Of a stretch of DNA of 64,000 nt, positions 9,472-35,824 are shown piece by piece. The translations under genes and the position numbers were made by a program. Under the pieces are notes generated by a model. That model searched no databases. It saw only the letters and a program-made list of their open reading frames with translations, and was not told the DNA's origin. The stretch is from Candidatus Altiarchaeota archaeon (GTDB taxonomy: Archaea; Altiarchaeota; Altiarchaeia; IMC4; SCGC-AAA252-I15). The stretch lies in assembly GCA_043800705.1 (NCBI GenBank), contig JAZDMS010000034.1, positions 1,827 through 65,826 of the forward strand, written 5' to 3'. Numbering within the stretch: the first letter of the stretch is position 1; each line of letters starts with the position of its first letter.

Positions 9472-9472
9472 A

Positions 9473-9567
9473 AGTCTGCGGTTTTCAGTTTCCGGTTTAC
9501 AGTTCTCGGTCTGCGTCCCCTGACGTGAAAACTGGAGACTGTAAACAGCAGACCGCAGACAGAGGAC
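9473..9567. repeat. Degenerate heptamer inverted repeat, (RGTYYNC)x6 / (GNRRACN)x6
   Basis: AGTCTGC GGTTTTC AGTTTCC GGTTTAC AGTTCTC GGTCTGC, 12-nt spacer, then GAAAACT GGAGACT GTAAACA GCAGACC GCAGACA GAGGACA; fills the gap between two convergent stop codons. Confidence 0.9.
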
Positions 9568-9569
9568 AG

Positions 9570-9974
9570 TCATAATATCTTCCCGCCGGAGACATCGATC
9601 ACTACGAATTCTATGCCCGAAAGCTGGGGGGTCTTCGACACTAGCTCCTTCACCTTCTGGGGGCTGCATTTGCTGTTGCCGGAGACAAGGAGCACCGCCA
9701 TCCTGGGTGAAAGCACCATGAGCTTCCACATGTGGCGGAATATGTCGTCCAAGAGGCCGAACTCCATCTCGAATGCGACGTTCGGCTCCACCCATACGAG
9801 GTCCACCCTGCCGAAGTTGTATGCGTTCCTTATCACGCTGGAGTCTTTGAGGGCGGTGAATCCCTGCTTTTCCCCGAGCGTCCGGTAGTATTCTATCAGC
9901 GCCCCCCGAAACGGCATCTTGCACTCCTTTAGGTGCGCCTTGAGGCCCGCGAAATCGGAGAGCAGCTCCTTCAA
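9570..9974 (-). CDS. Small protein with a putative PD-(D/E)XK-like fold
   Basis: GRVDLVW...VAFEME resembles a restriction-endonuclease-fold motif, but the catalytic Lys is not evident; start overlaps the nnr stop. Confidence 0.55.
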   Translation of the reverse strand: MKELLSDFAGLKAHLKECKMPFRGALIEYYRTLGEKQGFTALKDSSVIRNAYNFGRVDLVWVEPNVAFEMEFGLLDDIFRHMWKLMVLSPRMAVLLVSGNSKCSPQKVKELVSKTPQLSGIEFVVIDVSGGKIL

Positions 9975-11335
9975 CTCGATTCCTCCGCCAGGTCCATGCA
10001 GGCGCCTATGGCATCAGGGAGCCTTGAGATCACGTCCGTAGCTACCAGCGATACGCCGTATTCTTCTGCCGCGATGTCGCCTGCGAACCCGCTCAGGAAG
10101 GCGCCCGCGCATGCTGATTTCATCCTGTCGCCTGTTTGTGCCAGAAGGCCGCCTATGACGCCCGCCAACACGTCTCCCGTGCCTCCGACTGTCATATATG
10201 GATTTCCGCTCCGATTCAGCCTCGTCCCCTTCCCGTCGGAGACGACGTCGATGGCGCCCTTCAGGACTATGACCGAACCGGTCTTCTTCGCCCACCTGCA
10301 GGCATCCGCCTCGGGGTCTTCGAGGGAGCCGAATAGTTTTTTGAACTCGCCCTGATGAGGGGTGAGGACCATCCTGTCGGAAACCCATCTCCTGTCGGCG
10401 AGGCTGAGGGCGTCGGCGTCGACGACCACCGGCCTGTCGGCGTGCCTCATCAGGTATTCTACCGCCTTCCTGCTTTTTCTTCCGAGGCCGTTTCCGAACA
10501 CCAACGCGTCGGATTCCAGCTTGAGGACGGATTTGACGTCCGAGGGGGTGACATATTCCCTGCCCTTCAGTCTGTGGACGATGAGGTTCGGGTCGAAAGG
10601 CATCTTGTCTGCTACGTATCCGGGGACGCATACGTCGACGAGGTCGCAGCCGGCCCTCAATGCCGCCTGCGCTACGAGCATCGGAGTCCCTATGTAGTCC
10701 TTCGACCCCCCGACGACCATGAGGCGGCCGAAGTCTCCTTTGCGGCTGGACGCCTTGCGCTCTGGTATCGCCACGGCGACGTCGCCCGGACCGCAGTACT
10801 GCTCTGCCTCCGGGGGTATGCCTATGTCTACGACCCTGGCGCCGGGGACCTTTCCCTTGTGGAGGCTAATCACTTCGTCCGCCTCCACCAGACCAGCGGA
10901 CGGGACGTCCACGCTTATTTTCACCGCAGAAGATTCGTTCATCTCTTCGATTATGCCTTTCAGCGGCTCTTTGGGTTTGTCTCTGAATCCCGTACCCAGG
11001 AGCGCGTCGACTATGAGGTCGCAGCCTTTGAGCTCGAAGTCGCGCCTGGACTGGATGAATTCCACTGCCTCTTCAGGCAGCCTTCCGAGGTTGAGGAGGT
11101 TCAGCCTGCTTCGATCCGAGCCGTCCAGGACGTACGCCCGAGCCTTCGCCCCGGATTCAAGTAGGTATCTTGCAGCGACGAGACCGTCTCCGCCGTTGTT
11201 CCCCCTGCCGCAGAAGACTGCGATGCTACGGTAGCCCCTGCACGCCTCTGCTACCTGCCTGCCCGCATTCTCCATCAGCGACTCGACGCTGACACCAAGC
11301 CATGCGGCGTTGATATCCAGCGCCCGAGGGTCCAT
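9971..11335 (-). CDS. nnr: Bifunctional NAD(P)H-hydrate epimerase/dehydratase
   Basis: LMENAG, CGRGNNGGDG, VDALLGTG; KGDFG, VVDADAL, LTPHQGEF, GGTGDVLAG. Confidence 0.95.
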   Translation of the reverse strand: MDPRALDINAAWLGVSVESLMENAGRQVAEACRGYRSIAVFCGRGNNGGDGLVAARYLLESGAKARAYVLDGSDRSRLNLLNLGRLPEEAVEFIQSRRDFELKGCDLIVDALLGTGFRDKPKEPLKGIIEEMNESSAVKISVDVPSAGLVEADEVISLHKGKVPGARVVDIGIPPEAEQYCGPGDVAVAIPERKASSRKGDFGRLMVVGGSKDYIGTPMLVAQAALRAGCDLVDVCVPGYVADKMPFDPNLIVHRLKGREYVTPSDVKSVLKLESDALVFGNGLGRKSRKAVEYLMRHADRPVVVDADALSLADRRWVSDRMVLTPHQGEFKKLFGSLEDPEADACRWAKKTGSVIVLKGAIDVVSDGKGTRLNRSGNPYMTVGGTGDVLAGVIGGLLAQTGDRMKSACAGAFLSGFAGDIAAEEYGVSLVATDVISRLPDAIGACMDLAEESS

Positions 11336-11369
11336 GGGAATTAATTGAGCCTACGGGATAATAACCGGA

Positions 11370-11837
11370 TCAGCTGCAGCAGCCGATCCTCGTGCACGTC
11401 TGGATGGCGGGCATCAGGAGGCCTTCGTCGGAGAGGTAGTATTCTCCGAGTATCAGGCCCTCGTCGTCGGATGCGGTGACATACCATCCGTTGCGCTGAT
11501 ATTTCTCGCGCTGGGTGCGGTATTTGACGAAGACCTTTCTGCCCCATCCGAGGGGGTAGTCTGGGGATGTGCCTTCTTTAACCTTCTCCGAATAGGCGAC
11601 CTTGAGTCTCCTGATGTTTTTCTTCACAAGCTCTACCGCTTCATCTGCAGAGGCGGCCTTGCCCGCGTATAGCGCTAAATCGTCTCTGAAGTACATCTGG
11701 CACGGCAGAGGTTCCGGGTATTCGCTGACGTTCAGGACGACGACCTCCTCCGTCGGGAAGAACGGCAGGGGGCTGAGGACGTAGATGAATGCGAGAGCAA
11801 GGATTGCTCCGACCAAGACCCACCACGCGCTGTTCAC
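11370..11837 (-). CDS. Hypothetical membrane-anchored protein
   Basis: N-terminal hydrophobic anchor; Cys-containing C-terminus (CTRIGCCS). Confidence 0.6.
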   Translation of the reverse strand: MNSAWWVLVGAILALAFIYVLSPLPFFPTEEVVVLNVSEYPEPLPCQMYFRDDLALYAGKAASADEAVELVKKNIRRLKVAYSEKVKEGTSPDYPLGWGRKVFVKYRTQREKYQRNGWYVTASDDEGLILGEYYLSDEGLLMPAIQTCTRIGCCS

Positions 11838-11888
11838 GGATAACGTATGGATTCAGGTTAATAAAATGACGAGACTGAACCTAACATC

Positions 11889-11916
11889 GAAGACTGAAAA
11901 CTGAGAACTGAAAACT
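11889..11916. repeat. Heptamer tandem repeat directly after the cdc48 stop
   Basis: GAAGACT GAAAACT GAGAACT GAAAACT abutting TCA; the minus strand reads TGA AGTTTTC AGTTCTC AGTTTTC AGTCTTC. Confidence 0.85.
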
Positions 11917-14091
11917 TCACATGTACGCCGGTATCTTCTCGTCCCTTTTTCCGCGTTTGAACCCCTTTTCGTAGCTTTTCGCCTCGTCTTGGGTGACGGA
12001 GGGCCTGACTTCCTGGAAGGCCTTCTCGAAGTGTTTGGAGTCCACGTGGGATGCGGCCGTATCCTCCCTCATGGCAGCCATCGCGGCCTCCCTGCAGAGG
12101 GCTTCTATGTCGGCTCCGGTGTAGCCTTCGGTCTTGCGGGCGAGCTCTTCGACGTTGACTGCCCGCAGGGGCATCCCCTTCGTGTGCACGCGCAGGATCT
12201 CCTCCCTCGCCTCCTTGTCGGGAAGCGGGACGAGGACGAGGCGGTCGAATCTGCCTGGCCTGAGCATGCTGGGATCCAGCATGTCAGGGCGGTTCGTCGC
12301 CCCCAGGATTATGACGTTCTCCAGGCGTTCTATGCCGTCCATCTCGGTGAGTATCTGGTTGACTACGGTCTCGGTGACGTGGGAGCCGAACTCCATCCCC
12401 CGCCTGGGGGCCATCGCGTCCATCTCGTCGAAGAATATGATCGTGGGGGCGGTCTGCCTCGCTTTCTTGAAGATTTCCCTTATGCCCTTCTCGGATTCGC
12501 CGACCCATTTTGAGAGGAGCTCCGGCCCCTTGATGGCTATGAAGTTCGCCTCCGACTCGGTGGCGACCGCCTTTGCCAGCATCGTCTTCCCGCAGCCTGG
12601 GGGGCCGTACAAGAGGACCGCCTTCGGGGGGTTTATCCCAAGTCGCGTGAACGCCTCCGGCTTCTTGAGGGGCCATTCGACGGCCTCCATCAATTCCTCC
12701 TTGACCTTCTTCAGGCCGCCGATGTCCGTCCAGTGGACATCTGGGACTTCGACCATTACTTCCCGCAGGGCGGATGGTTCGACCACCTTCAATGCCTCGT
12801 TGAAGTCCTCCTTCGTGACCTGCAAAGTCTCCAGGACCTCCGCGGGTATGGTCTCGCTGTCGAGGTCGATCTTGGGCAGTATCCGCTTGAGCGCGTGCAT
12901 CGCGGCCTCGCGGCCGATCGCCGAGAGGTCGGCGCCTACGAAGCCGTGCGTAATCTTGGCTATCCGGTCTATGTCGACGTCCTCCGACATCGGCATGCCC
13001 CGGGTGTGTATCTGGAGTATCTCCTTCCTGCCGTTGACGTCAGGCACGCCTATCTCGATCTCCCTGTCGAATCGGCCGGGCCTCCTGAGCGCGGGGTCGA
13101 GCGAGTCCGGTCTGTTCGTGGCTGCGAGGACTATCACGTTGCCCCGGCTTACGAGGCCGTCCATCAGGGCCAGAAGCTGGGCGACAACCCTCCGTTCGAC
13201 TTCGCCCTTGGTCTCGTCCCTCTTGGGGGCGATGGAGTCGAGCTCGTCTATGAATATGATCGATGGCGCGTTCTGCTGGGCATCATCGAATATGTCGCGG
13301 AGCTTCCGCTCGGATTCGCCGTAGAACTTGTCCATGATTTCGGGGCCGTTCAGGTGCAGGAAGTGGGCGTTCGATTCCGATGCGACGGCTTTGGCCAGGA
13401 GGGTTTTGCCTGTTCCTGGGGGGCCATATAGTAGTACGCCTTTTGGGGGTTTGATACCTAGTTTTTCGAACAGCTCCGGGTGCTTCATCGGCAGCTCCAC
13501 CATCTCCCGGACCCTCGACACCTCGTCCTTGAGGCCTCCTATGTCCTCATACCTGATGGCGAGGCCCGCAATCGACTGCGGAGACATGGGCTTGTTCTTC
13601 ACCTCGACGACGGTGTGTTCGTTGATTGTGACCACGCCCTCCGGCTTCGTGACGCCGATGGTGAACGAAATCGGCTGGTTCAATACCGTGATATAGAATA
13701 TGTCGCCCGAAATGACGGGCCTGCCCATCATCACCCGCTGCTTGATGTATGCGTTGAAGTCCTCGCCGAACTTTATCTGCTGCTCAGTCGGGGCGATAAC
13801 GACCTTCTTCGCGGGCTTAACGTCCGCCTTCCTGACCCTGATCTTGTCGCCGAGGGATGCGCCCGAGTTCTGGCGGATCGTGCCATCCATCCTGGCAATT
13901 CCGCGGCCGTCGTCCTCCTGATGCGTCTGCCAGACCTTGGCCGTGGTCGTCCTGCGGCCCTCGACCTCGACTATGTCCCCGGTCGTGACGTCGATCCGTT
14001 TCGCCGACATGGAATCGATCCTAACGATGCCGCGGCCTACGTCGTTCTGCAGCGCCTCTGCGACCTTCAACTCGATTTCCTTCTCAGACAT
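11917..14091 (-). CDS. cdc48: CDC48/VCP AAA+ ATPase
   Basis: N-domain plus two AAA modules (GPPGTGKT, GPPGCGKT, IIFIDE, RPGRFDR); C-terminal AYM HbYX-like motif. Start MSEKE at 14091 with TTTAAA about 26 nt upstream. Confidence 0.97.
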   Translation of the reverse strand: MSEKEIELKVAEALQNDVGRGIVRIDSMSAKRIDVTTGDIVEVEGRRTTTAKVWQTHQEDDGRGIARMDGTIRQNSGASLGDKIRVRKADVKPAKKVVIAPTEQQIKFGEDFNAYIKQRVMMGRPVISGDIFYITVLNQPISFTIGVTKPEGVVTINEHTVVEVKNKPMSPQSIAGLAIRYEDIGGLKDEVSRVREMVELPMKHPELFEKLGIKPPKGVLLYGPPGTGKTLLAKAVASESNAHFLHLNGPEIMDKFYGESERKLRDIFDDAQQNAPSIIFIDELDSIAPKRDETKGEVERRVVAQLLALMDGLVSRGNVIVLAATNRPDSLDPALRRPGRFDREIEIGVPDVNGRKEILQIHTRGMPMSEDVDIDRIAKITHGFVGADLSAIGREAAMHALKRILPKIDLDSETIPAEVLETLQVTKEDFNEALKVVEPSALREVMVEVPDVHWTDIGGLKKVKEELMEAVEWPLKKPEAFTRLGINPPKAVLLYGPPGCGKTMLAKAVATESEANFIAIKGPELLSKWVGESEKGIREIFKKARQTAPTIIFFDEMDAMAPRRGMEFGSHVTETVVNQILTEMDGIERLENVIILGATNRPDMLDPSMLRPGRFDRLVLVPLPDKEAREEILRVHTKGMPLRAVNVEELARKTEGYTGADIEALCREAAMAAMREDTAASHVDSKHFEKAFQEVRPSVTQDEAKSYEKGFKRGKRDEKIPAYM

Positions 14092-14211
14092 CGGGTAGTA
14101 TATAGTACGGGACGCCTTTAAATACTTTGTGATTACCCATAGGTTAGCCTGTATAGTGGTTTTTTGCTTTGTCACTGCCAGCCTGCAGCCTAATGCCTTG
14201 GCCTGTGGAAA

Positions 14212-14371
14212 GACGACAGAGGACTGGAGACAGAGGACCGAGGACGGGAGACCGGAGACAGTAAACTGAGGACGGGAGACAGGATGCCGGTCTTCGGTTT
14301 TCAGTTTTCGGTTTTCGGTCTTCAGTCACCGCTATCTTAGAGGGAGGACTGAGGACCGAAGACTGAGGACG
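14212..14371. repeat. Largest heptamer array: three alternating-orientation blocks (about 21 units)
   Basis: About 10 GRRRACN units (14212-14281), GGATGCC, 6 RGTYYYC-type units (14289-14330), 13-nt spacer, 4 GARGACN units (14344-14371). Confidence 0.9.
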
Positions 14372-14382
14372 TAATAGTGTTG

Positions 14383-14469
14383 GGTTGGGGCCGGAGGGGG
14401 TGTCCTGTGTTCGATGTCCTTCTCATCTAGGGGGGTGAGAAAGAAATAAATCCCATACCGACCCCAACC
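14383..14469 (-). ncRNA. Candidate small RNA (about 90 nt) with paired ends
   Basis: Minus strand GGUUGGGGUCGG pairs with CCGGCCCCAACC (12 bp; one G-U that would be C-A on plus); inner UUCUCA/UGAGAA hairpin; TTAAATA about 25 nt upstream. Confidence 0.5.
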
Positions 14470-14514
14470 TTATGTACTAAATTGTGTCCGCCGATATTTA
14501 ATCTAAATAGATAA

Positions 14515-14676
14515 CGCCGGTTACTATGGCATAAGACCGGGCTGTTCCGATGCCGTGCCCCGGGGAACGGACCAAACTGCCGGCTCAGGGTTCATATGGC
14601 CTAAATCCCCGCCTAACGCGTATGCTTGAACGGGTTGTATGAGCCGTTATCCCGCATTTTCCGATAGGAACCGGCG
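14515..14676 (+). ncRNA. Candidate multi-stem RNA (about 160 nt)
   Basis: Terminal stem CGCCGGTT-A-CTAT / ATAG-G-AACCGGCG; inner stems CTGTTCC/GGAACGG, CGGCTCA/TGAGCCG, GTTCA/TGAAC; G-U pairs favour plus; T-run follows. Confidence 0.45.
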
Positions 14677-14719
14677 AGGGCTATGTTTTTCAAGTATATG
14701 GGACGAAGGTTTTTATGGG

Positions 14720-15880
14720 TCAGTCCTTCATGTACTCCCGTAGGAGGACGGTGGCATAGCTCCCCTTCCCGAGGCTGAAGCCGAACGTCGCATCGCCCCC
14801 TTCGAGGGAGTATGTGAAATCTTCCGCAACCGAGTATGCGTCCCTGTATTCGCCCTTACTTGCCAGCTCCCCCATGCCCGCGACCTTGAAATTTTCGCGG
14901 CGTATGCCGTCTGCTTCCAGAATCCTCGCTGAAATGTCGTCGGCCTCTACATCCCACCCGACAAGGGGCAGTGACTCAACTGTCAGGCCTCTGCGGATGC
15001 ATTCGCTCAGGGCCCTGTTGAAGATGTGGCTCTGGTAGGCGTGGATGAACATCTTCTGAAGGCCCCCCGGAAAGGTCCTCAGCGCCCCTTGCCAGTCGCC
15101 GGGATATTGGATGAGATGGTTGAGGAGGGATTTCTCGTACCCCAGGTTGGTTGGAAAATTTTCCAATGCGGCCTGGAAATCCCTGGATTCTGCTAAGGAG
15201 TCTCGAAGGGCCGTCGTATCCGGACCCTCTCCTTCGAACGATTTGCCGACGTATGTCAACACCGCGCCTTCGAAGTCGCCCACCAGCATCATCTTCCCGA
15301 CCTCGTGTGTTATGGGCCGGACGTCGCCGAACCTCTGATGCCCGTAGAAGTTCGGGAATCCGGATGTCAATTGGGCTGAGGTGGCTTCGATGAGGTCCTT
15401 CGCTCCGGGCTTGACGCCCCTAACTTTGATGGTGAATCGGTTGCCTTTGAGGCTGCCAAGGCCGAGGTTCTCGTCGGCGTATGTGAAGTCCTTGAGTACG
15501 ATGTCCTTGATCTTCACGCCCCTGAGCCGCTCGAGCGGTACCTTGTATGCAGAGACCCTCTGGGCGGTAAAAGCCCGCTTGTCCTTTGTGCCTGCGAACT
15601 GGAAGCGGTCCCTTGATACCCCGATCCTCTGGGCGACCTCCTTCAAGGCCCTCATCGTGTCCCAGTTCTCCTTGACGAGGGTGAAATGTGTATAGGCTCC
15701 GGGGGACATGTCGCCCGGCTTGTCGCCGTCGAAGCCGAGGACCGCGCCCTCCGGAGTGATCTCCGCGACCATGAAATCCCCAGGCTCCCCCTTGATGGTG
15801 CCGCCGATGCCGGAGGTGGACGAGACATATTCCGCCATTCCTATGTAGATGTCGCGCGCCGGAGGTCTTATTCGGGCCAT
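14720..15880 (-). CDS. truD: tRNA pseudouridine(13) synthase TruD
   Basis: FAGTKDKRAFTAQ, GNRFTI, FPNFYGHQRFG, GSYATVLLRE; start taken at MARIRPP. Confidence 0.95.
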   Translation of the reverse strand: MARIRPPARDIYIGMAEYVSSTSGIGGTIKGEPGDFMVAEITPEGAVLGFDGDKPGDMSPGAYTHFTLVKENWDTMRALKEVAQRIGVSRDRFQFAGTKDKRAFTAQRVSAYKVPLERLRGVKIKDIVLKDFTYADENLGLGSLKGNRFTIKVRGVKPGAKDLIEATSAQLTSGFPNFYGHQRFGDVRPITHEVGKMMLVGDFEGAVLTYVGKSFEGEGPDTTALRDSLAESRDFQAALENFPTNLGYEKSLLNHLIQYPGDWQGALRTFPGGLQKMFIHAYQSHIFNRALSECIRRGLTVESLPLVGWDVEADDISARILEADGIRRENFKVAGMGELASKGEYRDAYSVAEDFTYSLEGGDATFGFSLGKGSYATVLLREYMKD

Positions 15881-15950
15881 CACATTAGAATACGGAACAG
15901 CCATAAATGAGCTGCAGAGGCGAGTCAAGGGAGAAATTAGCCTTGGCAGA

Positions 15951-16538
15951 TCAGGGCCTGTCCACGATTATCGCCCGTGTATTTGGGATTTTGCCCTTCA
16001 GTAGCCTGGTTAGGGACTCCAATTCTTTCCCGCGGTCAATTCCGTCGGTTGCCTTAAGCGGGATCGTAATCTTCCGGAGGCCAAGCCCCTCCTCGACAGG
16101 CCCTACCGTCTCAAGAATGCAAGCGGAGATGGACTCTCCCCAGATTTCACAAGGCGTCTCTGGGCTTATCCCCAAGTCTCTTTTGGCCAATTCGGTTTTA
16201 AGCATGCTGATGCTGCTCATGTCGTTATCATCGAAGAGAAAACTGGGACTTGGCAACACTATCAGCCGCCTTCCGCCGAGCCTCTCCTTCGCGTAATTTT
16301 CAACCTCGGTCCAGACCCTCTTTCTGCGATAATCGTCTTTATATTCCCTCTCCCTTGAAGGGGAAAATACGGCCAAAACATCTTCCTGGCCGAGAAAGTC
16401 GATCTTCCCCTTATACACTTCAAGCAAACGTTCGCCCATTACCCTGTCCTGGGCAGTTAGTGGAGCCTCAGGCTCTATGTGTTCGCTGTAGAAGCCAAAA
16501 CACGGATGGAGGAGTATATGCAGCCTGCCAACCTTCAT
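15951..16538 (-). CDS. Hypothetical protein (possible degenerate isochorismatase-like fold)
   Basis: 195-aa ORF filling the gap; ILLHP and EIWGESISACI motifs. Confidence 0.55.
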   Translation of the reverse strand: MKVGRLHILLHPCFGFYSEHIEPEAPLTAQDRVMGERLLEVYKGKIDFLGQEDVLAVFSPSREREYKDDYRRKRVWTEVENYAKERLGGRRLIVLPSPSFLFDDNDMSSISMLKTELAKRDLGISPETPCEIWGESISACILETVGPVEEGLGLRKITIPLKATDGIDRGKELESLTRLLKGKIPNTRAIIVDRP

Positions 16539-16638
16539 AATAATCAGATGTCTTAGATGCTATAATAGCCCACTTGTCCAGAATCATCCGGTTAAGCCTT
16601 ACGCTGCCATTTATTCCAGGCATCACATAATATTCTGC

Positions 16639-16923
16639 ATGTCGCTAAATGAACTCCAAATGCAGGTGAAGGCCTACGACAGGAAGAAGGGATGGTCTAA
16701 GGACACACCCGAGGAGGCCCTCATCCACATGCAGGAGGAGCTCGGCGAGATAGCCAGGGAAATCCTCAAGAAACGCGGATACAAGAAGGGCGGATACGAG
16801 CCGGACAGGCTCAACGACGAGATGACGGACCTCATATACCTCACCATGAAGCTCGGAAACCTCCTCGACCTCGACCTAGAAAAGGGATGGGGCAGGATGG
16901 AGAAGAGGTTCGAGGGAAAGTGA
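16639..16923 (+). CDS. MazG-like nucleotide pyrophosphohydrolase
   Basis: EELGEIA...DEMTD (EExGE...ExxD). Confidence 0.85.
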   Translation: MSLNELQMQVKAYDRKKGWSKDTPEEALIHMQEELGEIAREILKKRGYKKGGYEPDRLNDEMTDLIYLTMKLGNLLDLDLEKGWGRMEKRFEGK

Positions 16924-16964
16924 TTTTTCTGCTGGATTTTAATTAGTCCGTCTCAGTCGGTTAT

Positions 16965-18134: not shown

Positions 18135-18170
18135 GTCAGGATATAAGCGATTGTTCAATTAGATTATCAG

Positions 18171-18215
18171 ATGGATCCTTGGACCGTCGGCGAGGTGGCC
18201 GATTGTTGGGGCTGA
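18171..18215 (+). pseudogene. Relic copy of the trpS 5' end
   Basis: ATGGATCCTTGGACCGTCGGCGAGGTGGCCGATT (MDPWTVGEVAD) versus trpS 19250 ATGGACCCGTGGACCGTCGGCGAGATAGCCGATT (MDPWTVGEIAD); then loses frame and stops at TGA. Confidence 0.8.
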
Positions 18216-18218
18216 CTG

Positions 18219-19130: not shown

Positions 19131-19141
19131 ATGCCATTATA

Positions 19142-19180
19142 GGGGATACAAATATATAAATGTTAAATTTGGGGGATACA
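19142..19180. promoter_or_regulatory. Direct repeat GGGGATACA x2 flanking the fic TATA box
   Basis: GGGGATACA at 19142-19150 and 19172-19180 surrounds ATATATAAAT (minus strand ATTTATATAT). Confidence 0.45.
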
Positions 19181-19243
19181 TAGCTGGCTGATGCCGGGAT
19201 ACGGCCGTATTAACTACTAAATAGGGCAAAAGTAGTATTATTG

Positions 19244-25397: not shown

Positions 25398-25429
25398 TTA
25401 TGGCAATTTGCCAATAGGTTTATCCCACC

Positions 25430-26122: not shown

Positions 26123-26166
26123 TGGGAACGGCATTATTATTTACCTATTTGCCCCTATCTTAAGGG

Positions 26167-27975: not shown

Positions 27976-27976
27976 C

Positions 27977-28849
27977 TCAAACGCCCTCCGTCTTCGCGTC
28001 GAAGCAGTAATGCCGTCTCTCGTCGTTGTCGGCGGAAACTCTGAACCTGATCTCGGAATCCTCCGAAGAGTATGCGGAGGTGTCGAATGATGCCCCGACC
28101 CATCCCGGCTTGTCCGGGTTCGTCAACTTCCCGAGCGCCGTTCCTGACACAGACACCTCGAGGTAGACCGTTCCCCCGGTTGTGCCTACCTTGTCGTCCG
28201 CCACTGCCGAAGAGACCGTCAAACGGTTCCCGAGGCGGACGCCGCTGAAGACGAGTTCTATCGTCGTGCCGTTCCTAGGATGCACGAACATGCAAAGCCT
28301 ACTTTGGCCGCCGGAGGTGACGACCTTCCGTTCGATCTTCTGCCAGTACTCGGTGTAGCAGTCCCTGCTGAGGGCCCCCTTAGTGAACCCGCATCTTCTC
28401 GTGCCCGATGCGGAGATCATATAGATCGAGGGGTCGGCGGCGATGAGGCTCCCCTGCCTCTGTGCCTTGGAGCCGACTGCAGCCGCCTTCCTCACGAGGA
28501 TGCCCTGCACATTCTGGGAGTACACGGCCTGGTATCCCTGCGGCAGCGGGTTCTCGTCCAGTGTCAAGAGCCAGTATGATTCGCAGCCGCGGCATTCGCT
28601 CAGGTTGAAGCCCCCGAACCTTCCGAGGTCCGTCGCGTAGTTGTAAAGCCAGCCGGGGTCGAATGCTATGGGTTCGCCGCCGTAGCCGGAGGCTGACATG
28701 ACCGACTTCGCCTGATCCCATGCCTGCCCCCCAGGCTTGTTAAGGAATATCCCGAAGTTCTTGAGATATGCTGCGCCAAGGACAGCATATACTGCAAGGG
28801 ACAGGATCAGGATCGTCCACGCAGTCTTGGCGCTGAGCTGTTTTTTCAT
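27977..28849 (-). CDS. Membrane-anchored protein with a Cys/HP beta-sandwich (NPCBM-like) domain
   Basis: MKKQLS start overlaps the upstream stop (ATGA); TM anchor; CMFVHP...RRHYCFDA. Confidence 0.7.
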   Translation of the reverse strand: MKKQLSAKTAWTILILSLAVYAVLGAAYLKNFGIFLNKPGGQAWDQAKSVMSASGYGGEPIAFDPGWLYNYATDLGRFGGFNLSECRGCESYWLLTLDENPLPQGYQAVYSQNVQGILVRKAAAVGSKAQRQGSLIAADPSIYMISASGTRRCGFTKGALSRDCYTEYWQKIERKVVTSGGQSRLCMFVHPRNGTTIELVFSGVRLGNRLTVSSAVADDKVGTTGGTVYLEVSVSGTALGKLTNPDKPGWVGASFDTSAYSSEDSEIRFRVSADNDERRHYCFDAKTEGV

Positions 28850-31407
28850 TTTAGGTAGGCGTTGAAAAAGAAGTGGGCCCACCTGTCGCTTCGGGCCTTC
28901 GTCTCGAATGTTATGTTCGCGGGACCTCGCGGGAGGCTGGTGAGCTCAAAACTGGTCCAGCCTTCGCGTTTCCAAAGCGTGTCGGACAAGACCCGTTTCC
29001 CGTTCACATAGACGGTGAAGGTTGTGTCGGTCCCCTGCGGCATCTCCTTCAGGGCGACGTCGTCGAATCCAAAGAAGCCTTCGAGCGCTCCACGGGATGG
29101 CACGTTGAAGTATTCGATACGCTTCGTCTTCCCGGCATGGGGGTGGACCCATAGGACATCCTCGTATATTCCCCCGTTCGAGGCGTATGTCCTTGCGTAG
29201 GTCCTCCAGATGGCGTTCTTCCTGGCTAGGTCGGGTTCGCAGTCCCATCGCTCATACAGCTTGAGGCTCTGGAAGGGCGGCGCCTTCTCGGCGTGCGGGT
29301 ATATGGAGTCGTTCTGCCAGATGCCGCATGCGGCAGAATCCCCCTTTTCGTCTATGAGGGAGACCTTCGCCAGCCCTATGTTGCGGAAGAAGTAGTCGTC
29401 CGAGGCGAGGAGGCGCTCATCGGAGACCTCTGCGTTGAAGCACAGGTGCCTCTTCTCGTCGTAGTCCGTGTATATCCTGAAGCTGACGCCTTTTCTGCCG
29501 GCATACGCAGACGTGTCGACCGTGTATGCGAAGTATCCCGGAACGCTCGGTATGATGACTCTGTCTATCATCTGGGCGCCCGCCAGGACGTCGACGTAGC
29601 AGGGGGACATCAAATGTTCCTCAGCCACGAAACCGTCCTCGATGCCGGCCCAGACCGTGAGGCTTTCGCGGAGGGTTTCGTCCTTGTAGGCGATCTCCAC
29701 TGTCTGGTTCTGCCTCGGATGCGCGAAGATGCACTCCCTCTCCTGAGCGCCTACCTGCAGGCTGACGACGTCGATGTTCTGCCAGTATTCCCCGAAGCAC
29801 TGCTGAGCGTTCTCTGCCCGCCGGCAGTCGATTGTCCTGCCGTTTTCTATCAGGTTCACGCCGGCTTGTTTGAATTTTCCAGACAGCAGGTCCGTCGGCT
29901 TGATTTTCTTCAGCTCATGGACGTACACGCCGTCCATAGCCCAAGTCCTTGTGAATCGGAAGACTTCCTTGAATTTCTCCGTTTTCGTCGGCCAGTCATC
30001 GTCGTCGTGTATGAGTATTATGTTGTCGGCATTTGGCAGCCTGACGTCCTTGAGGCTCTCATACGCCCGGACCTTTTTGCCGTCGAGGTACAGCTTGCTG
30101 AACGCGTCCTGGAACCTCCAGCCGTGGACGACGACTATCTCCTGTCCGTCGTATATCCCGTTCACTATCTGGCCGGCATCCTTCCAGTCTGGGAAGGCGA
30201 GCCCCTGGAAGAAAACACAGAAGAAAGCGGAATAGGATACGATGAGGAATGCGGTCGCGACATTCAGGACCCATTTGAACCGTATCCTGGGCAGGGCGTT
30301 GGCGGCAAGGAATACGATGATAGGGGCTGCGAGGATGAAGTATCGCAGGCGGACTATGGTGTATTTAGACGCTATGAAGCCCCCGACCAGGGTGATTATC
30401 GCCTGCAGAATGAGGAGGCGCGCGAAGCCGTTTCGGACATTGGATATGATGCCATATGCCGCCAGGATGAGAAGCAGACACATGAAGGCCTGCCGCCATA
30501 CCCCCTCTACGCTGTCAAGGAGGAGTATGTGATTGGACACTGCCCGGTAATAGTCTGCGATCTCCTTCAGGCTCAGCTGCCCGACGTCCAGGCCCTTGGC
30601 CCCCCCGGACTGGCTCGTGGTCAGGTGCTGCTGGGCCTTACCGAGCTGATACGAGACCGGGGCCGAGACGATAAGGATGATGACCGCAGGTATGATGAAT
30701 TTTTTCAGGCTCATCCTGCGCAAGACGATGAGGGAGAGGGAGTAGACGGAGTATCCGAGGACTACCCCGAAACCCGGCAGACAGATTCCGGGCAGTATGG
30801 CCGCCGACAGGCCCCACAGGAGCTGATGCTTCAGCGACCCGGTCTGCCTGAACCTGATGAAGAACACATACGACAGGAGCGACAGGAATGCGAAGACCAT
30901 CCAATACTTCGGATCGAAGACAAACCAGACCACGAGCGGATTCAACGCGACCAGGAACGAGGACAGGAGCGCGCCGAAGCGGCTGCCGAACGTCAGCATC
31001 GAGGCACGGTACGTCGCGACTATGAGCCCCATATAGCACATGAAAAGGAGCGACCTGATGGAAACGCCCCCCATGCCGAAAAAGGCGGTCCAACCCTTCA
31101 GGATCAGGAAGTAGACGGGCGGCTGGTCCGCCCAGACCTCCTGGTTGATGAGCTTTCCAACCGGGTTCGTGGAGATGTTGACGTACTCCATACCCTCATG
31201 GAATGACATGAAGACCTTCGCGTTCCATACGACGAGGGCACCGATGAATAGGATGGCAATCAAGGCCTTGTCACGGGGCACGAGGCCGAGTATCAGCCCA
31301 TTGGCTTCCGGCGTCTTTGGCGAAGCGGCACCTGCCGCAGCCTGATCTGTCGAGGTATCCGCGTTCGCCGTTTTCTTCGTTTGTTGCGTCTTTCGATGAA
31401 TTTTCAA
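28846..31407 (-). CDS. GT-C (PMT/ArnT-like) glycosyltransferase with two C-terminal beta-sandwich domains
   Basis: DQPPVYF..L..W, many TM helices, RYFI, PDWK; two copies of the HP...(C/F)FNA domain. Confidence 0.8.
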   Translation of the reverse strand: MKIHRKTQQTKKTANADTSTDQAAAGAASPKTPEANGLILGLVPRDKALIAILFIGALVVWNAKVFMSFHEGMEYVNISTNPVGKLINQEVWADQPPVYFLILKGWTAFFGMGGVSIRSLLFMCYMGLIVATYRASMLTFGSRFGALLSSFLVALNPLVVWFVFDPKYWMVFAFLSLLSYVFFIRFRQTGSLKHQLLWGLSAAILPGICLPGFGVVLGYSVYSLSLIVLRRMSLKKFIIPAVIILIVSAPVSYQLGKAQQHLTTSQSGGAKGLDVGQLSLKEIADYYRAVSNHILLLDSVEGVWRQAFMCLLLILAAYGIISNVRNGFARLLILQAIITLVGGFIASKYTIVRLRYFILAAPIIVFLAANALPRIRFKWVLNVATAFLIVSYSAFFCVFFQGLAFPDWKDAGQIVNGIYDGQEIVVVHGWRFQDAFSKLYLDGKKVRAYESLKDVRLPNADNIILIHDDDDWPTKTEKFKEVFRFTRTWAMDGVYVHELKKIKPTDLLSGKFKQAGVNLIENGRTIDCRRAENAQQCFGEYWQNIDVVSLQVGAQERECIFAHPRQNQTVEIAYKDETLRESLTVWAGIEDGFVAEEHLMSPCYVDVLAGAQMIDRVIIPSVPGYFAYTVDTSAYAGRKGVSFRIYTDYDEKRHLCFNAEVSDERLLASDDYFFRNIGLAKVSLIDEKGDSAACGIWQNDSIYPHAEKAPPFQSLKLYERWDCEPDLARKNAIWRTYARTYASNGGIYEDVLWVHPHAGKTKRIEYFNVPSRGALEGFFGFDDVALKEMPQGTDTTFTVYVNGKRVLSDTLWKREGWTSFELTSLPRGPANITFETKARSDRWAHFFFNAYLK

Positions 31408-31457
31408 GCTAGGCTGTAGGTTATTAACGATTCAGGTTTTATATCTCAAACAAAACA

Positions 31458-32060
31458 ATGGAGCCCGACAAATCCCTGGAAAAAATGCTGTACATCGTCG
31501 CAGTGTGCGCGTTATTCGCCTACATGTACTTCAACCTGAACGATATGAGGGCGCAGAAGGTCTATGAGATCGGCTCAGCAGCGGATGGCTCCTTTTCCGC
31601 ATCCGACCTTATCCTGCAGGCGAAGGTCGCCGCGGGGGGAGAAAGTGGGTACGCTATTTGTCAGCCTTCCCCTAGCGGGGACATACGCAGGTGCGGGCCC
31701 GGCGATTGGAGCTACGTCGGCGCCACGGCGAAGAAGATGGCCGGCACTCTCAGAAAATGCGTGTGGGCGCACCCCATATCGGGCAAGACCATCAGGATAA
31801 CGTTCGAAGACGCAAATGTCGGGGATTCCATCGGCGGTTTCTACGGACTCTCCGACGGCTCGGAACTGGACAATCCGGGGACCGTAAACTTTACCATGTC
31901 GGTCGGCGGAAAGACCGTCTTCGATGGGGCGGCCGCCTATGCGGGGGCGCAGGAGTTCACGGTGGACACGGAACCCGGAAGGCAGACCGTGGAATTCAAG
32001 GTCTTTACAGACAACGACAGGCGGCGCTACTTCTGCTTCGACGCCTCAAGCAGCGGCTAG
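31458..32060 (+). CDS. Membrane-anchored protein with the same beta-sandwich domain
   Basis: TM anchor; CVWAHP...GFYGLSD...RRYFCFDA. Confidence 0.7.
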   Translation: MEPDKSLEKMLYIVAVCALFAYMYFNLNDMRAQKVYEIGSAADGSFSASDLILQAKVAAGGESGYAICQPSPSGDIRRCGPGDWSYVGATAKKMAGTLRKCVWAHPISGKTIRITFEDANVGDSIGGFYGLSDGSELDNPGTVNFTMSVGGKTVFDGAAAYAGAQEFTVDTEPGRQTVEFKVFTDNDRRRYFCFDASSSG

Positions 32061-32860
32061 AACCCCTTTGCCGCTATTATTTCAGGCACGGTCGCGAACA
32101 TTATGCCCCTGCCCTTGAAAGAGACTATCAGTTTCTCCAGGTCGTCCAAAGCCTTCTTCCCGACGCCGTTCGTCATGTGCGAAGGCAGCCCCTTGACGGA
32201 GGGCAGGTCGGTGAACTCCCATGGGTGGAAGTACAGGAGGGAATATCCCCTCAGGGCGAGCGCCACCCTGCAGCCAAGCATCGTGTACCAGAGCCCGATG
32301 TTGCGCATCCACCACCACGAGATCGGCAGCCCCAGGAGCGTCGACATCGGGACTTCGACTATTTTGCCGAACGTGCGGATCCCCCTCGGCTGCATCACGT
32401 CGAAGAGCCTGCCAGGAAGCACCGCGGGATGGATGGAACTGTCATATTCGAATTCAAGGTCGGTGAGGACATCGTAGAGCCTGGGATTCACGCTGTTCCT
32501 TGGGCTTCGAAAGCCCTTCGGCTTCATCCCCGCTGCGGCCTGGACGGAATCCATCCCAGCCCGTATCTCCCTCGTCAGCCTATCCGGGGACATTCCCTTC
32601 AGTTCTATGTGTTCGTTTGCGTGGCATCCGACGTCGTGTCCCTTTTCCACGAGCTCCCGGATTAGCCCGGGATAGTTCCTCGCGAATACTCCCGTGACGA
32701 AGAAGCTGGCCCTGATGCCGTGTTTCTGCAGAAGGTCGATGAGGCTCCGAAGGCCCCTCGCGGAGAAGACGTCCGACATAGTATGTTCGCTTTCCACGCC
32801 AAAGACGGCGGGCGAGTCCCATTCCTCGACGTCGAAGGACAGGCAGACTAGTGATCCCAT
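32057..32860 (-). CDS. Polysaccharide deacetylase (CE4, DUF3473-type)
   Basis: SFDVEEW, ASFFVTG, GCHANEH, GFRSP, YDSS, YFHPWE; start MGSLV at 32860. Confidence 0.9.
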   Translation of the reverse strand: MGSLVCLSFDVEEWDSPAVFGVESEHTMSDVFSARGLRSLIDLLQKHGIRASFFVTGVFARNYPGLIRELVEKGHDVGCHANEHIELKGMSPDRLTREIRAGMDSVQAAAGMKPKGFRSPRNSVNPRLYDVLTDLEFEYDSSIHPAVLPGRLFDVMQPRGIRTFGKIVEVPMSTLLGLPISWWWMRNIGLWYTMLGCRVALALRGYSLLYFHPWEFTDLPSVKGLPSHMTNGVGKKALDDLEKLIVSFKGRGIMFATVPEIIAAKGF

Positions 32861-32996
32861 CAAGGAGAATAAGGACTGGGCGGATAAAAGTATTCCAGAA
32901 TGGATGACAACGATAAACTTCTCAGCCACTATTTTAAGAGTGCGGCCCAAATAGTGATGAAAGTTGGAGGTTAATCCTCCCCGCTGACGGTAAAAA

Positions 32997-34844
32997 ATGC
33001 GCATACCCGACTTTTTCACGACAAAGATCGGCCGATTCAGGGCCTGGATGATGAGCCGTGGGGGGAGGTTCCTCAATGTTTTCACCATATTGCTTCTTTT
33101 TGCCGCCGCCCTGTCCGCAATGTATTTTGGGATGCTTTGGTACGTCCAGGAGACTTCCCAGAACACCATATACTTCACGAACTCGGCGGACTTCGCGGGA
33201 TGGACGACCTCGGACATCGACGAGTCCGTCTGGACGAAGGGGCCCATACCGTTGAATTCAGTCTACAGCGACAGCCAGCTTCTGGTGAGGACCACGCTGG
33301 TATCGGGGGGCCTGCCAGGATACGAGCAGGTCTCCGCAAGGGTCATAGCAAACGACTGCCTGAGCGAATTTTACATGAACGGACAACTTATCTTCAACGA
33401 GACCAACTGCGGGGGGTGCAGCCACTGCGTCTTGGGCGTCCAGGTCAACCTGACGGAACACCTAAGGCCTGGCGTGAACACGGTGGCGTTCAAGATACTC
33501 AACAGCGGCGGCGCCCAGGTTGGGTTCACATGGGCGCTTGAAGGCGACCTGGGGGTCAAGCTGCTTTACAGCGTGCTTCTCACACTCCTTCTGGCCGCCG
33601 TCGTATACCATATGAGGAAGGGCTTCAGGCTCCTTTCGGAGGACGTCTCCGGAAGGCATAATGCGGCCGTCTTCCTCATCCTGTGCCTGCTCGTCTACTC
33701 TTTGGTCGCCGGAGAAAGGAACTTCCAGGTGTCGGTAAGCCCCCAAAACGTCTACCTCGCTGAGGCGTACGCTCAGGGGAGGCTCGGGATGGACATGTGC
33801 CTGGAGGAGATGGTCCAGGGCGTGGACGGAAAATGCTACAACCCCCAGGGCCCGATGCCGGCCGCATTGATGGCGCCCTTCGCATATTTCTTCGGCCATA
33901 ACGTGAGCGACTACTCCTTCACCGTCTTCCTCGCCAGCCTCGCCGGGGCCGCATTCATGCTTGTGATGTTCGCTGTCAGGGCCAGGGGCGCAGGCTTGTC
34001 CGTGAGGGACGCGTGGACCTATTCGGCGCTGTTCTCCTTCGGGACCATAATGCTCGTGTACTCGACGTACGGCTCGTTCTGGATAGTGAACCAGATAACC
34101 TCCGTTTTATTCATCACCCTATTTCTCCTGTTCGTGGTGAGGGGCACGAACCCCTTCCTGGTCGGGGCATTCCTCGGGGCGAGCATGCTGGCCAGATACC
34201 ATACCGTCCTGTTCATCATCATATACTTCGCATACCTGGCCATGGACAGGGAAAAGAACTTCTGGAAGAAGGTTCATTCCGCGGCGCTCGCATCGGTCGC
34301 CTTGTCTTTGTTCCTGGGAGTGTTCCTTGCCCACAACTTTGCCAGATTCGGGGACCCGCTGGACGCGAGCTATTCCAGGTTCAACGGCGGCGTCTACTTC
34401 GATCTGAACAGGCTCGGTCCCCACCTTTCCAACGTCTTCTTCTCCCTGCCGACGAGGGTGTCGTATTATCCGTATTTCATGGTCCCGATGGAGGGCTTGA
34501 GCGTATTCCTGACGACACCCCTGTTCCTCTACATCCTAAGGATCAGATACGGTACGCCCCTGCTGAAGTCGCTGCTCATAGGATGCTCTGTATATTTCCT
34601 CTTCATCATGGCCTACCCCACGAACGGCTGGGCCCAGTTCGGGTACAGATACCTTCTGGAGATAAACCCGTTCCTGGTGGCGATGCTCGCCCTGAACAGG
34701 GAAAACTTGAAGCCTGGAAAGCTTTTCATCATGCTTCTTGTGTTAGGGATGGCCGTCAACCTGTTCGGGGCCCTTACCTTCAAGAGGCCGCCCATCGACC
34801 AGATGATTTACACGTTCGAAACCTTCCTGACGCAGACGAAGTGA
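32997..34844 (+). CDS. GT-C-like membrane protein with an N-terminal galactose-binding-like domain
   Basis: ANDCLSEFYMNG...HLRPGVNTVAF domain, then many TM helices, NFARFGDPL and QFGYRYLLE; start uncertain. Confidence 0.7.
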   Translation: MRIPDFFTTKIGRFRAWMMSRGGRFLNVFTILLLFAAALSAMYFGMLWYVQETSQNTIYFTNSADFAGWTTSDIDESVWTKGPIPLNSVYSDSQLLVRTTLVSGGLPGYEQVSARVIANDCLSEFYMNGQLIFNETNCGGCSHCVLGVQVNLTEHLRPGVNTVAFKILNSGGAQVGFTWALEGDLGVKLLYSVLLTLLLAAVVYHMRKGFRLLSEDVSGRHNAAVFLILCLLVYSLVAGERNFQVSVSPQNVYLAEAYAQGRLGMDMCLEEMVQGVDGKCYNPQGPMPAALMAPFAYFFGHNVSDYSFTVFLASLAGAAFMLVMFAVRARGAGLSVRDAWTYSALFSFGTIMLVYSTYGSFWIVNQITSVLFITLFLLFVVRGTNPFLVGAFLGASMLARYHTVLFIIIYFAYLAMDREKNFWKKVHSAALASVALSLFLGVFLAHNFARFGDPLDASYSRFNGGVYFDLNRLGPHLSNVFFSLPTRVSYYPYFMVPMEGLSVFLTTPLFLYILRIRYGTPLLKSLLIGCSVYFLFIMAYPTNGWAQFGYRYLLEINPFLVAMLALNRENLKPGKLFIMLLVLGMAVNLFGALTFKRPPIDQMIYTFETFLTQTK

Positions 34845-34884
34845 GCATGTCGCATTTATTTTCCGCCTGCTTATCTATCTTATT

Positions 34885-35697
34885 ATGAGGCATTTTGCGA
34901 GCCTGGTCCTGCTGTGCTCCTATTTCATGCTCACAGTCTGCCTCGGACTATATACCGCCCACGTTACATACCCCCTGATGTATCCGCCGCCGGGGCAGGT
35001 ACAGGTGATCGAGCCCATCGTCGCCGACCCGCAGGACGTGTCCTCGACGTTCTGGTTATTCGTCTACGTCATCATCGTGACGGCGGTCATGCTGGCCTTG
35101 ATGAGGCTGGGCCTCGGGGGGATAATCCAGGCGGCCATGTACATGTCGTTCTTTGCGGGAAGCTTCATCACGTTTTCGGCCTTCCTTGGCGAACCTGCTG
35201 CCCTAACCCTAAGCCTCGCTTCGCTGGCGGCCCTCCTAATGAGGCGCGGCGACCTCATCCTTGCGAACACCGCCATGGTGTTCACCATCTCGGGGGTGGG
35301 GGCAATACTCGGCCTCTCGCTCGGCATATGGCCGGTGTTCGCATTCATCGTCCTGTTGTCGGCCTACGATTATGTCGCGGTGTTCGTGACGAAGCATATG
35401 GTGACTTTGGCGAAGGGCAGCAAGGGCAGGTTCGGGCTGATGTTCCTGGTCCCTGTGGGGGATAGGATGATGGGACTTGGCGCCGGCGACGTCGCCATAC
35501 CGACGACGTTCGTCGTCTCGGTCTATGTGGCGCACGGCATAGGATACGCGGTCCCGACCGCATACGGTGGCCTCATCGGAGTCGTGTCGCTCTTCTATTA
35601 TCTCATGGACAGGGAAGGCGCCACGCTGCCCGCGCTTCCGCCGATAACTGCGGGACTCCTGATAGGATACGGCCTGTGCCTCTTGATACTTCGATAG
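34885..35697 (+). CDS. Presenilin-like intramembrane aspartyl protease (A22)
   Basis: YD, GLGAGD and PALP motifs in a polytopic protein. Confidence 0.9.
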   Translation: MRHFASLVLLCSYFMLTVCLGLYTAHVTYPLMYPPPGQVQVIEPIVADPQDVSSTFWLFVYVIIVTAVMLALMRLGLGGIIQAAMYMSFFAGSFITFSAFLGEPAALTLSLASLAALLMRRGDLILANTAMVFTISGVGAILGLSLGIWPVFAFIVLLSAYDYVAVFVTKHMVTLAKGSKGRFGLMFLVPVGDRMMGLGAGDVAIPTTFVVSVYVAHGIGYAVPTAYGGLIGVVSLFYYLMDREGATLPALPPITAGLLIGYGLCLLILR

Positions 35698-35700
35698 GCC

Positions 35701-35824
35701 GGTCTGCAGTCCACGGTTTTCAGTTCTCAGTTTCCAGTCTTGAGCCCGAAGTCCTTAGTCTTTCCTAAGACTGAAAACCGAAAACTCCGTCAAGACCTAA
35801 AACCGTGACCGAAGACTGGAGACC
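35701..35824. repeat. Degenerate heptamer inverted repeat after the presenilin stop
   Basis: GGTCTGC AGTCCAC GGTTTTC AGTTCTC AGTTTCC AGTCTTG ... TAAGACT GAAAACC GAAAACT ... CAAGACC TAAAACC ... GAAGACT GGAGACC. Confidence 0.85.

Follow-up and report, generated by a model that had tools for sequence, protein, structure and literature searches.

Dispersed hairpins of heptanucleotide repeats beside stop codons and within genes of a Candidatus Altiarchaeota archaeon

Introduction

Heptanucleotide repeats near stop codons are a puzzling phenomenon of bacterial genomes. In a 64,000-nt stretch of the genome of a Candidatus Altiarchaeota archaeon (assembly GCA_043800705.1, contig JAZDMS010000034.1, positions 1,827 to 65,826 of the forward strand; hereafter the window), four intergenic loci are built of degenerate 7-nt units with the pattern RGTYYNC or its complement GNRRACY, and three of them carry both orientations. 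The closest described systems are the heptameric repeats of Xanthomonas (GGGAATC) and Nostoc (GGGGA(C/T)T), which are read as G-quadruplex formers and for which the accessible text of the report gives no link to mobile elements (PMC4692102). In that text, as in the archaeal genome, the repeats are tandem 7-nt units, often about four to an array and often in convergent inverted pairs, are enriched between same-direction and convergent genes and rare between divergent ones, lie within 50 bp of stop codons or overlap them, and vary in length among close relatives (PMC4692102). The Nostoc unit GGGGACT is the complement of AGTCCCC, which is present 8 times in the genome of the window. Unlike these G-rich repeats, the archaeal units are mostly U/A-rich (GGTTTTC, AGTTTTC) and cannot form G-quadruplexes, the host is an archaeon, and a third of the loci lie in frame inside genes.

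The TAACTGA direct repeats of Beggiatoaceae, Cyanobacteria and Bacteroidetes, for which horizontal spread is suspected, resemble the archaeal family as sporadic heptamer arrays, some overlapping stop codons and some read in frame, in the stop-free orientation and at protein peripheries, as far as the consulted sections of the report go (PMC4679880). Their complement AGTTATC is one position off RGTYYNC, and GATAACY units occur in one array of the window genome. Unlike the stop-adjacent hairpin pairs described here, TAACTGA repeats form mostly short direct arrays just upstream of start codons; they were proposed as translational regulators, with one inverted pair in 170 sets (PMC4679880, same sections). 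GGGACCG-type elements of Geobacter metallireducens lie within and between genes (PMC2700814). Rickettsia palindromic elements (RPEs), as presented in the portion of the literature consulted, share with the archaeal family the in-frame palindromes in unrelated housekeeping genes and a peptide tolerated by the protein fold, and differ from heptamer arrays as bacterial, unique sequences of about 150 bp that belong to a different sequence family (PMC10969869). The archaeal arms, unlike RPEs, would also expand by slippage. The likeness claimed here is that the archaeal elements work like RPEs; their architecture of heptamer arrays and their host differ.

REP/BIME and REPIN sequences, with their RAYT transposases, are short, imperfect, multicopy extragenic palindromes concentrated at gene 3' ends. 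The archaeal elements are likewise short imperfect multicopy palindromes, mainly extragenic and near 3' ends, though 21 of 58 loci are intragenic; unlike REP and REPIN sequences, their arms are tandem heptamers, copies occur inside genes, and no Y1/RAYT gene was found in the window's own genome (G000) or in G017, a relative from another genus.

A preliminary description, made from the letters of the window alone, did not recognise the repeats as described in archaea, and our literature searches gave no archaeal report of such heptamer repeats either. The family extends the bacterial phenomenon to an archaeal phylum with very compact genomes. We interpret it, with somewhat better than even confidence, as a genome-wide selfish or neutral hairpin-repeat family of the REP, RPE or miniature inverted-repeat transposable element (MITE) kind, which grows by slippage and survives only at harmless sites.

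Heptamer arrays and hairpins in the window

In-phase heptamers are evident at all four loci on direct reading, as first described, and Tandem Repeats Finder reports period 7 or 14 at 9479-9510, 11889-11916, 14207-14245, 14288-14323, 14344-14370 and 35707-35739. Element 1 (9473-9568, no strand) is a composite hairpin that fills the whole gap between two convergent stop codons, those of a Ribosomal_S3Ae gene (8911-9471, plus strand) and of a gene without Pfam family (9570-9974, minus strand). It consists of a pyrimidine-form (Y) arm of six units (9473-9514), a loop (9515-9526, GTCCCCTGACGT) and a purine-form (R) arm (9527-9568). Locus 2 (11889-11916, minus strand) is a single-arm array of four units (AGTTTTC, AGTTCTC, AGTTTTC, AGTCTTC) directly past the stop codon of a gene for a Cdc48/VCP-type AAA ATPase with CDC48_N and AAA domains (11917-14175, minus strand). 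Locus 3 begins with a purine-form array (14207-14284, no strand) of about 10 to 11 degenerate units (GAGGACN/GGAGACN), with the cdc48 start downstream, and adjoins a composite hairpin (14289-14371) made of a Y arm of five units (14289-14323), a loop (14324-14343) and an R arm (14344-14371). The purine-form array was delimited by eye, its unit position 1 being too degenerate for the array scanner, and it starts at about 14207 rather than at 14212 as originally placed. Element 4 (35701-35824, no strand), at locus 4, is a long decayed composite hairpin that begins past the stop codon of a gene for a presenilin-type signal-peptide peptidase (SPP family; 34885-35697, plus strand), and a TATAAAG motif lies 6 nt past its end. 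The S3Ae, Cdc48 and presenilin-type assignments of the preliminary description are upheld by Pfam.

The pyrimidine form starts 1 nt past the S3Ae stop, 1 nt past that of the convergent gene, 0 nt past that of cdc48 and 3 nt past that of the SPP gene, in agreement with the 0-3 nt originally noted. Loci 1, 3 and 4 carry both orientations and, as proposed, can form hairpins: predicted RNA folds are better than those of shuffled sequences on both strands (z-scores for plus/minus strand: locus 1, -4.5/-2.8; locus 3, -6.6/-3.6; locus 4, -3.8/-4.0), and the locus 3 hairpin has a minimum free energy of -47.3 kcal/mol at z -6.6. The single-arm cdc48 array shows no fold relative to shuffles (z +1.1). 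Searches of the window with Rfam at gathering score and for tRNAs gave no matches; Rfam at E up to 1 gave just far sub-threshold miRNA-hairpin matches on the locus 3 hairpin and none at 35780-36060.

A genome-wide family with fixed polarity

G000 (2.0 Mb in 43 contigs, 55.4% GC) contains 83 runs of at least three perfect units. A relaxed scan that allows one mismatch per unit finds 93 arrays with 539 units at 58 loci, compared with 1, 0 and 2 arrays in three block shuffles; head-to-tail heptamers thus exceed chance, and the dispersed family proposed from the four window loci is borne out. The reversed pattern, used as a control, has no matches across 41 genomes. Unit positions 2, 3 and 7 (G, T and C) are near-invariant, position 1 is A or G, the most frequent units are GGTTTTC and AGTTTTC, and one consensus holds at all loci. 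Long arrays are found at contig ends (C1:255-484, C33:4-164, C30:504-524), so the assembly probably breaks there and the true copy number is probably higher.

Two-armed loci are arranged Y-gap-R in 23 cases and R-gap-Y in 2, both of the latter marking the joins of neighbouring modules in a tandem cluster on contig C1. As inverted arrays, the two arms constitute terminal inverted repeats of the MITE type. Since the layout of an element is its own reverse complement, transcription from either side reaches the pyrimidine arm before the purine arm. The 'pyrimidine-strand-first' placement that had been noted is therefore real, but it is a property of element polarity and not of each locus.

The family is sporadic among close relatives. 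Arrays matching a four-unit pattern are found in two of 41 relatives, G000 and G017, which belong to different genera, and in none of the four same-genus genomes (G001-G004); a five-unit pattern is found in six of 61 genomes of the phylum, the four besides G000 and G017 all belonging to one family. Seven G017 arrays lie no more than 6 nt from stop codons, six of them pyrimidine-form in sense, and all three intragenic arrays of that genome are purine-form in sense. A search for the two-armed pattern in one genome per species gave at least 119 stretches, while our rough estimate for chance is about 0.2; the matches listed are mostly from Acidobacteriota, and also from Planctomycetota, Verrucomicrobiota, Bacteroidota, Gallionella and Desulfosarcina. 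On contig C4 of an Acidobacteriota genome (G062) there are dozens of copies of a 44-nt REP-like element, in which an 11-nt loop (TTAAGACCAGA or its complement) separates a pair of AGTTTTC units from a pair of GAAAACT units. A viral vector was also considered: four RGTTYNC units in tandem occur in at least 133 viral stretches, with 79 for the reversed control, so these matches are mostly generic tandem heptamers and the viral line was dropped.

Copying between loci and slippage within arms

Element 1 has about 100 nt in common with C12:76971-77113, including its loop (89% identity over 101 nt). Element 4 is 86% identical over 120 nt to C12:2144-2257, with the same end turned towards a stop codon in each copy. 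Between copies, unit numbers diverge in the outer portions of the arms (e.g., 25 units vs. 6). Because the dispersed copies share unique loops and unit order, we conclude from these alignments that whole elements have been copied between loci, and that their arms would then have expanded or contracted locally. Such heptamer repeats would accordingly be copied between loci and not solely arise on the spot.

Higher-order repeats, read directly, measure 21 nt in coding arrays (C16, C25:69826) and 14 nt in an intergenic one. In a relative of about 90% identity, sampled by a public DNA run (X1), element 1 is kept with a purine arm 15 nt shorter, as seen on one contig at depth 3.7; this was the one run listed for window positions 8000-16000, with a 0.07 share of words and no RNA run beside it, and its contigs are fragments of a relative that is about 85-95% identical. 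Joints in run X1 other than the contig bridging element 1 proved to be repeat-to-repeat artefacts and were set aside.

Copies in frame within genes

By our gene calls, 21 of the 58 loci lie within open reading frames (ORFs), and the frame stays open in 21 of 21. In Hef the insert (residues 509-575) falls between Helicase_C (343-458) and ERCC4 (585-702), and in methionyl-tRNA synthetase (MetRS) it falls at 554-591, between Anticodon_3 (408-549) and tRNA_bind (613-707), all domains being assigned by Pfam. Other host genes with Pfam domains flanking or split by the insert encode, among others, an FNR-like protein (NAD_binding_1), an HD protein, a PRMT-like methyltransferase (PRMT_C) and a Dph5-type TP_methylase. 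The orthologues in G001-G004 and G017 are without the insert segments. The FNR-like protein has 287 residues, compared with 211-276 in all 119 homologues listed, and its AlphaFold model gives pLDDT values of 93-98 for the host fold and below 50, with no secondary structure, for the insert (161-209). As with RPEs, palindromes are inserted in frame in unrelated protein genes and tolerated by the fold; as far as our literature searches show, those in MetRS and Hef are the first archaeal palindromic repeats in frame in housekeeping enzymes. Such inserts are a ready source of new disordered linkers. Among six same-strand gene pairs that flank an element, none is a split gene.

The purine strand encodes hydrophilic heptapeptide repeats rich in K, T, E, D, N, R and P, while the pyrimidine reading is rich in S, V, F and Q. 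The sense strand carries the purine form at all 14 single-arm intragenic loci (p = 1.2e-4), intragenic units number 139 purine-sense vs. 45 pyrimidine-sense, and the longer arm of two-armed intragenic elements is the sense purine arm in six of seven. This bias exists even though the pyrimidine reading is nearly free of stop codons (2 of 93 arrays contain one, vs. 70 of 93 for the purine reading in some frame), which points to selection on the product or against U tracts in mRNA. TTTT-bearing units make up 5 of 45 (11%) sense pyrimidine units in genes vs. 114 of 355 (32%) intergenic ones.

TENREPR-type peptide arrays are present in 11 unrelated proteins of other organisms, among them a glycogen-debranching enzyme labelled Candidatus Altiarchaeales. 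The 11 also include bacterial enzymes of unrelated kinds (an ABC ATPase, Maf, ThiE, diacylglycerol kinase and a DegT aminotransferase) that are broken up by long TENREPR/TENRELR heptapeptide arrays, which implies that in-frame heptanucleotide arrays are widespread beyond Altiarchaeota.

Empty sites in relatives and the origin of stop adjacency

The comparison of orthologous loci that had been suggested shows the S3Ae, cdc48 and ilvC sites to be empty in same-genus relatives. In G001 the S3Ae stop abuts the convergent stop (TGA followed directly by TTA) with no element between, and neither G001 nor G003 has an array past the cdc48 stop, where relatives have about 50 nt containing the next promoter. 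Upstream of ilvC, relatives have 4-7 nt from the upstream stop to the TATA box; this same gap holds an element in G000 and in G017, with differing loops in the two genera. No empty site was found for the presenilin locus in G001-G004, where downstream synteny is not conserved. Overall, a stop codon at an empty site is followed by the next stop or TATA box after 0-7 nt, and much of the stop adjacency follows from this minimal spacer: the elements fill the sole neutral bases between transcription units.

Genome-wide, 40 element ends face a gene 3' end, and 16 of them come within 3 nt of the stop codon, whereas of 30 ends facing a gene 5' end none lies within 3 nt of the start and 28 are at least 32 nt away. 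The proposed test for enrichment at stop codons is positive, as 13 of 33 loci touch a stop compared with 4.8 expected under free placement in the available spacer. In four flanks the last one or two bases of the stop codon are also the first bases of a unit.

A model consistent with these observations has three steps. An element, with a degenerate RGTYYNC array as its 5' arm and the complement as its 3' arm, would first be copied whole to new loci, as the dispersed copies with common unit order and loop indicate. Slippage would then lengthen or shorten its arms by 7, 14 or 21 nt at a time, which the higher-order repeats and unequal arms suggest. Finally, copies would survive where they do no harm, either in the short gap from a stop codon to the following stop or promoter, or in frame in protein linkers and surface loops, with the purine strand giving hydrophilic heptapeptides. 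The fixed Y-then-R polarity, together with this site filter, accounts for the rule that the pyrimidine form comes first past a stop. If the elements act at transcript 3' ends at all, they would have been co-opted for this secondarily.

Several observations weigh against a selfish or neutral origin. The excess at stop codons persists when 30 or 50 nt are excluded for promoters (5.6 or 6.5 expected vs. 13 of 33; P about 5e-6 to 5e-5), several elements begin or end 0-3 nt away from a stop though 158-284 nt of spacer lies behind them, and 9 of 11 stop-adjacent single arms, by hand count, are pyrimidine-form in sense. The depletion of sense TTTT in genes could also reflect a real terminator effect. 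Three filled-vs-empty comparisons (S3Ae, cdc48, ilvC), in which relatives at 52-82% protein identity are too diverged for exact junctions, showed no target-site duplication, and the insertion junctions showed no stop-like target motif. No transposase partner was found in a search restricted to Y1_Tnp (PF01797), which is matched neither in G000 (87.6% complete) nor in G017 (78%) and is present in 21 of 61 genomes of the phylum; the cognate Y1 (IS200-like/RAYT) gene that accompanies REP and REPIN sequences is thus missing from both assemblies. The counts themselves come from a genome that is 87.6% complete, in which repeats are often unassembled, and from our own simple gene caller (about 1740 genes, with approximate start codons).

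Association with PF05635 genes

PF05635 is the 23S-rRNA intervening sequence (IVS) protein family and is related to Avd (PMC10053308). The sole PF05635 gene of G000 (C1:22662-23024, Pfam E 1.4e-17) lies inside the largest cluster of hairpin modules, with tandem modules on both sides; the nearest solved chain to its product is 2rld_A. To our knowledge, no biochemical activity has been described for the family. In G017 the orthologue is placed between a 5-unit Y arm and a 15-unit R arm, both abutting neighbouring stop codons, and in G026 the gene is between a Y array and purine-form units. The G026 element (C1:1085400-1088700) directly follows a tRNA gene; its longest ATG-started ORF has 74 codons and the region includes a masked N run, and the gene may be truncated or frameshifted. 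G021 (C295:4100-7400) is without RGTYYNC arrays, and its PF05635 gene is flanked by (GGGATTA)n in about 6 and about 28 copies, plus CTAACCA arrays. The GGGATTA arrays constitute a different heptamer family within Altiarchaeota.

One alternative to a purely selfish or neutral repeat is that the gene-less hairpins are MITE-like deletion derivatives of a small element in which a PF05635 gene sits between inverted arrays, the protein binding the arrays or aiding their spread. We regard this as possible, though clearly short of probable. In its favour, the genes of G000, G017, G026 and G021 lie among or between heptamer arrays, and PF05635 is found in 5 of 6 array-bearing genomes of the phylum vs. 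4 of 55 others, although related genomes are not independent samples; two of the four array-negative genomes with the gene (G021 and G026) do have arrays beside it. In four bacterial genomes (G061-G064), 8 of 12 PF05635 genes are flanked on either side by period-7 arrays no more than 150 nt away, against a background of one array per 2.9 kb; the unit on the upstream side agrees with the reverse complement of the downstream one at 6-7 of 7 positions. These flanking arrays comprise 4-6 heptamers with a unit that varies by gene (CAGTTTT, AGTCTAG, AAGTCCC, AGGGATG, AAGGATG, ATTTTAG and others). Gene-less hairpins of yet other heptamers occur near the bacterial PF05635 loci.

Other observations run against this association. 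A metagenome scan with a narrow alignment of the archaeal subfamily gave 32 loci with at least 300 nt on both sides. Period-7 arrays flank both sides of just 3 of these and at least one side of 9, and the other 23 are without any array within 400 nt. The genes of G057, G059, G060 and G008 have no clear flanking arrays, and G053 has an array and no PF05635 match. PF05635 proteins with only about 19% mutual identity are flanked by one and the same unit, AGTTTTC, which excludes a simple code linking protein to unit. In three genomes of one family (G059, G060 and G057), a conserved ORF of about 30 codons (MYKRLIKG...YGMY.GKA) and other dispersed repeats (GTTACGCTACA) come after the PF05635 gene.

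Genes enclosed by pairable inverted repeats, as in G017, G026, partly G000 and 8 of 12 bacterial cases, recall the 23S rRNA IVS and the Avd protein of diversity-generating retroelements; no window locus carries such a gene. Unlike the 23S rRNA IVS, the elements here are outside rRNA genes and most hairpins are without a gene. In its broadest form the proposal is that heptamer-array hairpins and PF05635 genes are one widespread mobile unit of bacteria and archaea, namely a four-helix-bundle gene of about 120 codons between inverted arrays of 4-6 heptamers whose unit varies by copy, and that the repeats of Nostoc, Xanthomonas, Beggiatoaceae, Geobacter and Altiarchaeota are gene-less derivatives that settle past stop codons and in frame in proteins. 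We put this forward tentatively. If true, the link would give a large family of uncharacterised function its first genomic context and a testable ligand, and would unite several scattered reports of heptamer repeats.

A role at gene 3' ends

The preliminary description favoured a lineage-specific 3'-UTR (untranslated region) element and kept a REP-like selfish repeat as its fallback; the fallback fits better. Under the 3'-end interpretation the arrays are functional elements, in which the U-rich arm (UUUU every 7-14 nt) and the hairpin terminate or protect transcripts or insulate convergent or packed genes, and intragenic copies are by-products. Its attractions are the stop adjacency above the placement expectation, the pyrimidine-form single arms in sense and the depletion of sense TTTT units in genes, all given above, together with the elements with differing loops that occupy the same ilvC gap in two genera. 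Moreover, 18 of 22 stop-adjacent flanks have at least one TTTT within 60 nt vs. 479 of 1739 (28%) of all gene ends, and bacterial heptamer repeats lie within 50 bp of stop codons on the sense strand, by the accessible text of that study (PMC4692102).

Against such a function, the 37 intergenic loci serve about 2% of about 1740 genes, the family is absent from all four same-genus genomes, which do without an element at S3Ae, cdc48 and ilvC, and 21 loci interrupt genes of essential type, in which a terminator would do harm. In the hairpin the U-rich arm comes on the 5' side and the purine arm last, with no U tract after it, unlike a terminator with a U tract at the point of release. A run of four T residues is also short for an archaeal terminator. 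The TTTT depletion in genes is equally explained by avoidance of Phe-rich peptides. The original interpretation is supported in part. A dedicated 3'-UTR element is not supported as such as the main interpretation, and we consider a functional 3'-end element unlikely. Co-option of the U-rich arm of a selfish or neutral repeat as a 3' end signal is nevertheless possible on sequence grounds, given the stop adjacency, the U-rich single arms in sense and the depletion of sense U4 in genes. The arrays also have consequences for annotation: they extend ORFs, interrupt assemblies at contig ends and may pass for regulatory RNAs.

Slippage on the spot and excision

Heptanucleotides are the commonest long simple repeats in prokaryotes and have been ascribed to polymerase slippage (PMC4679880, citing Mrazek 2007, in the sections consulted), and each locus might have arisen on the spot from a chance proto-repeat, with no copying between loci. 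Unequal arms and higher-order repeats agree with this, as does the abundance of tandem heptamers of any sequence in viral contigs noted above. It is nonetheless improbable and already disfavoured by the paralogous copies, since dispersed elements have unique loops and unit order in common, and also by the fixed Y-then-R polarity, the single unit consensus and the same-genus genomes without any arrays.

That intragenic copies are excised from mRNA, by hairpin excision and religation, and remain untranslated is very improbable: long hairpins are predicted to form, and PF05635-bearing intervening sequences of 23S rRNA are cut out at a stem, but the open frame in all 21 intragenic copies, the 21-nt steps in coding arrays and the strong sense bias to a hydrophilic reading would be unneeded if the copies were spliced out.

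Other features of the window

A GC-rich stretch at 14383-14480 on the minus strand has pairable ends (GGTTGGGGTCGG ... CCGGCCCCAACC) followed by CAACAC. It had been noted as a candidate RNA ending at 14383; it has no Rfam or tRNA match and possibly corresponds to a small structured RNA, for instance an H/ACA-like guide. Past element 4, the region 35825-35910 contains a strong GC hairpin (GGGGGAGCCTGGCGACC...GGTCGCCAGACCCC) after the TATAAAG motif and about 120 nt upstream of a cupin gene; it has no Rfam match and may represent a small transcript. Two further regions (403-635 and 45572-45672) consist of ACG/ACC-rich tandem repeats with periods of 15, 18, 27 and 36 nt, which are probably coding low-complexity segments rich in Thr and Asp and unrelated to the heptamer family.

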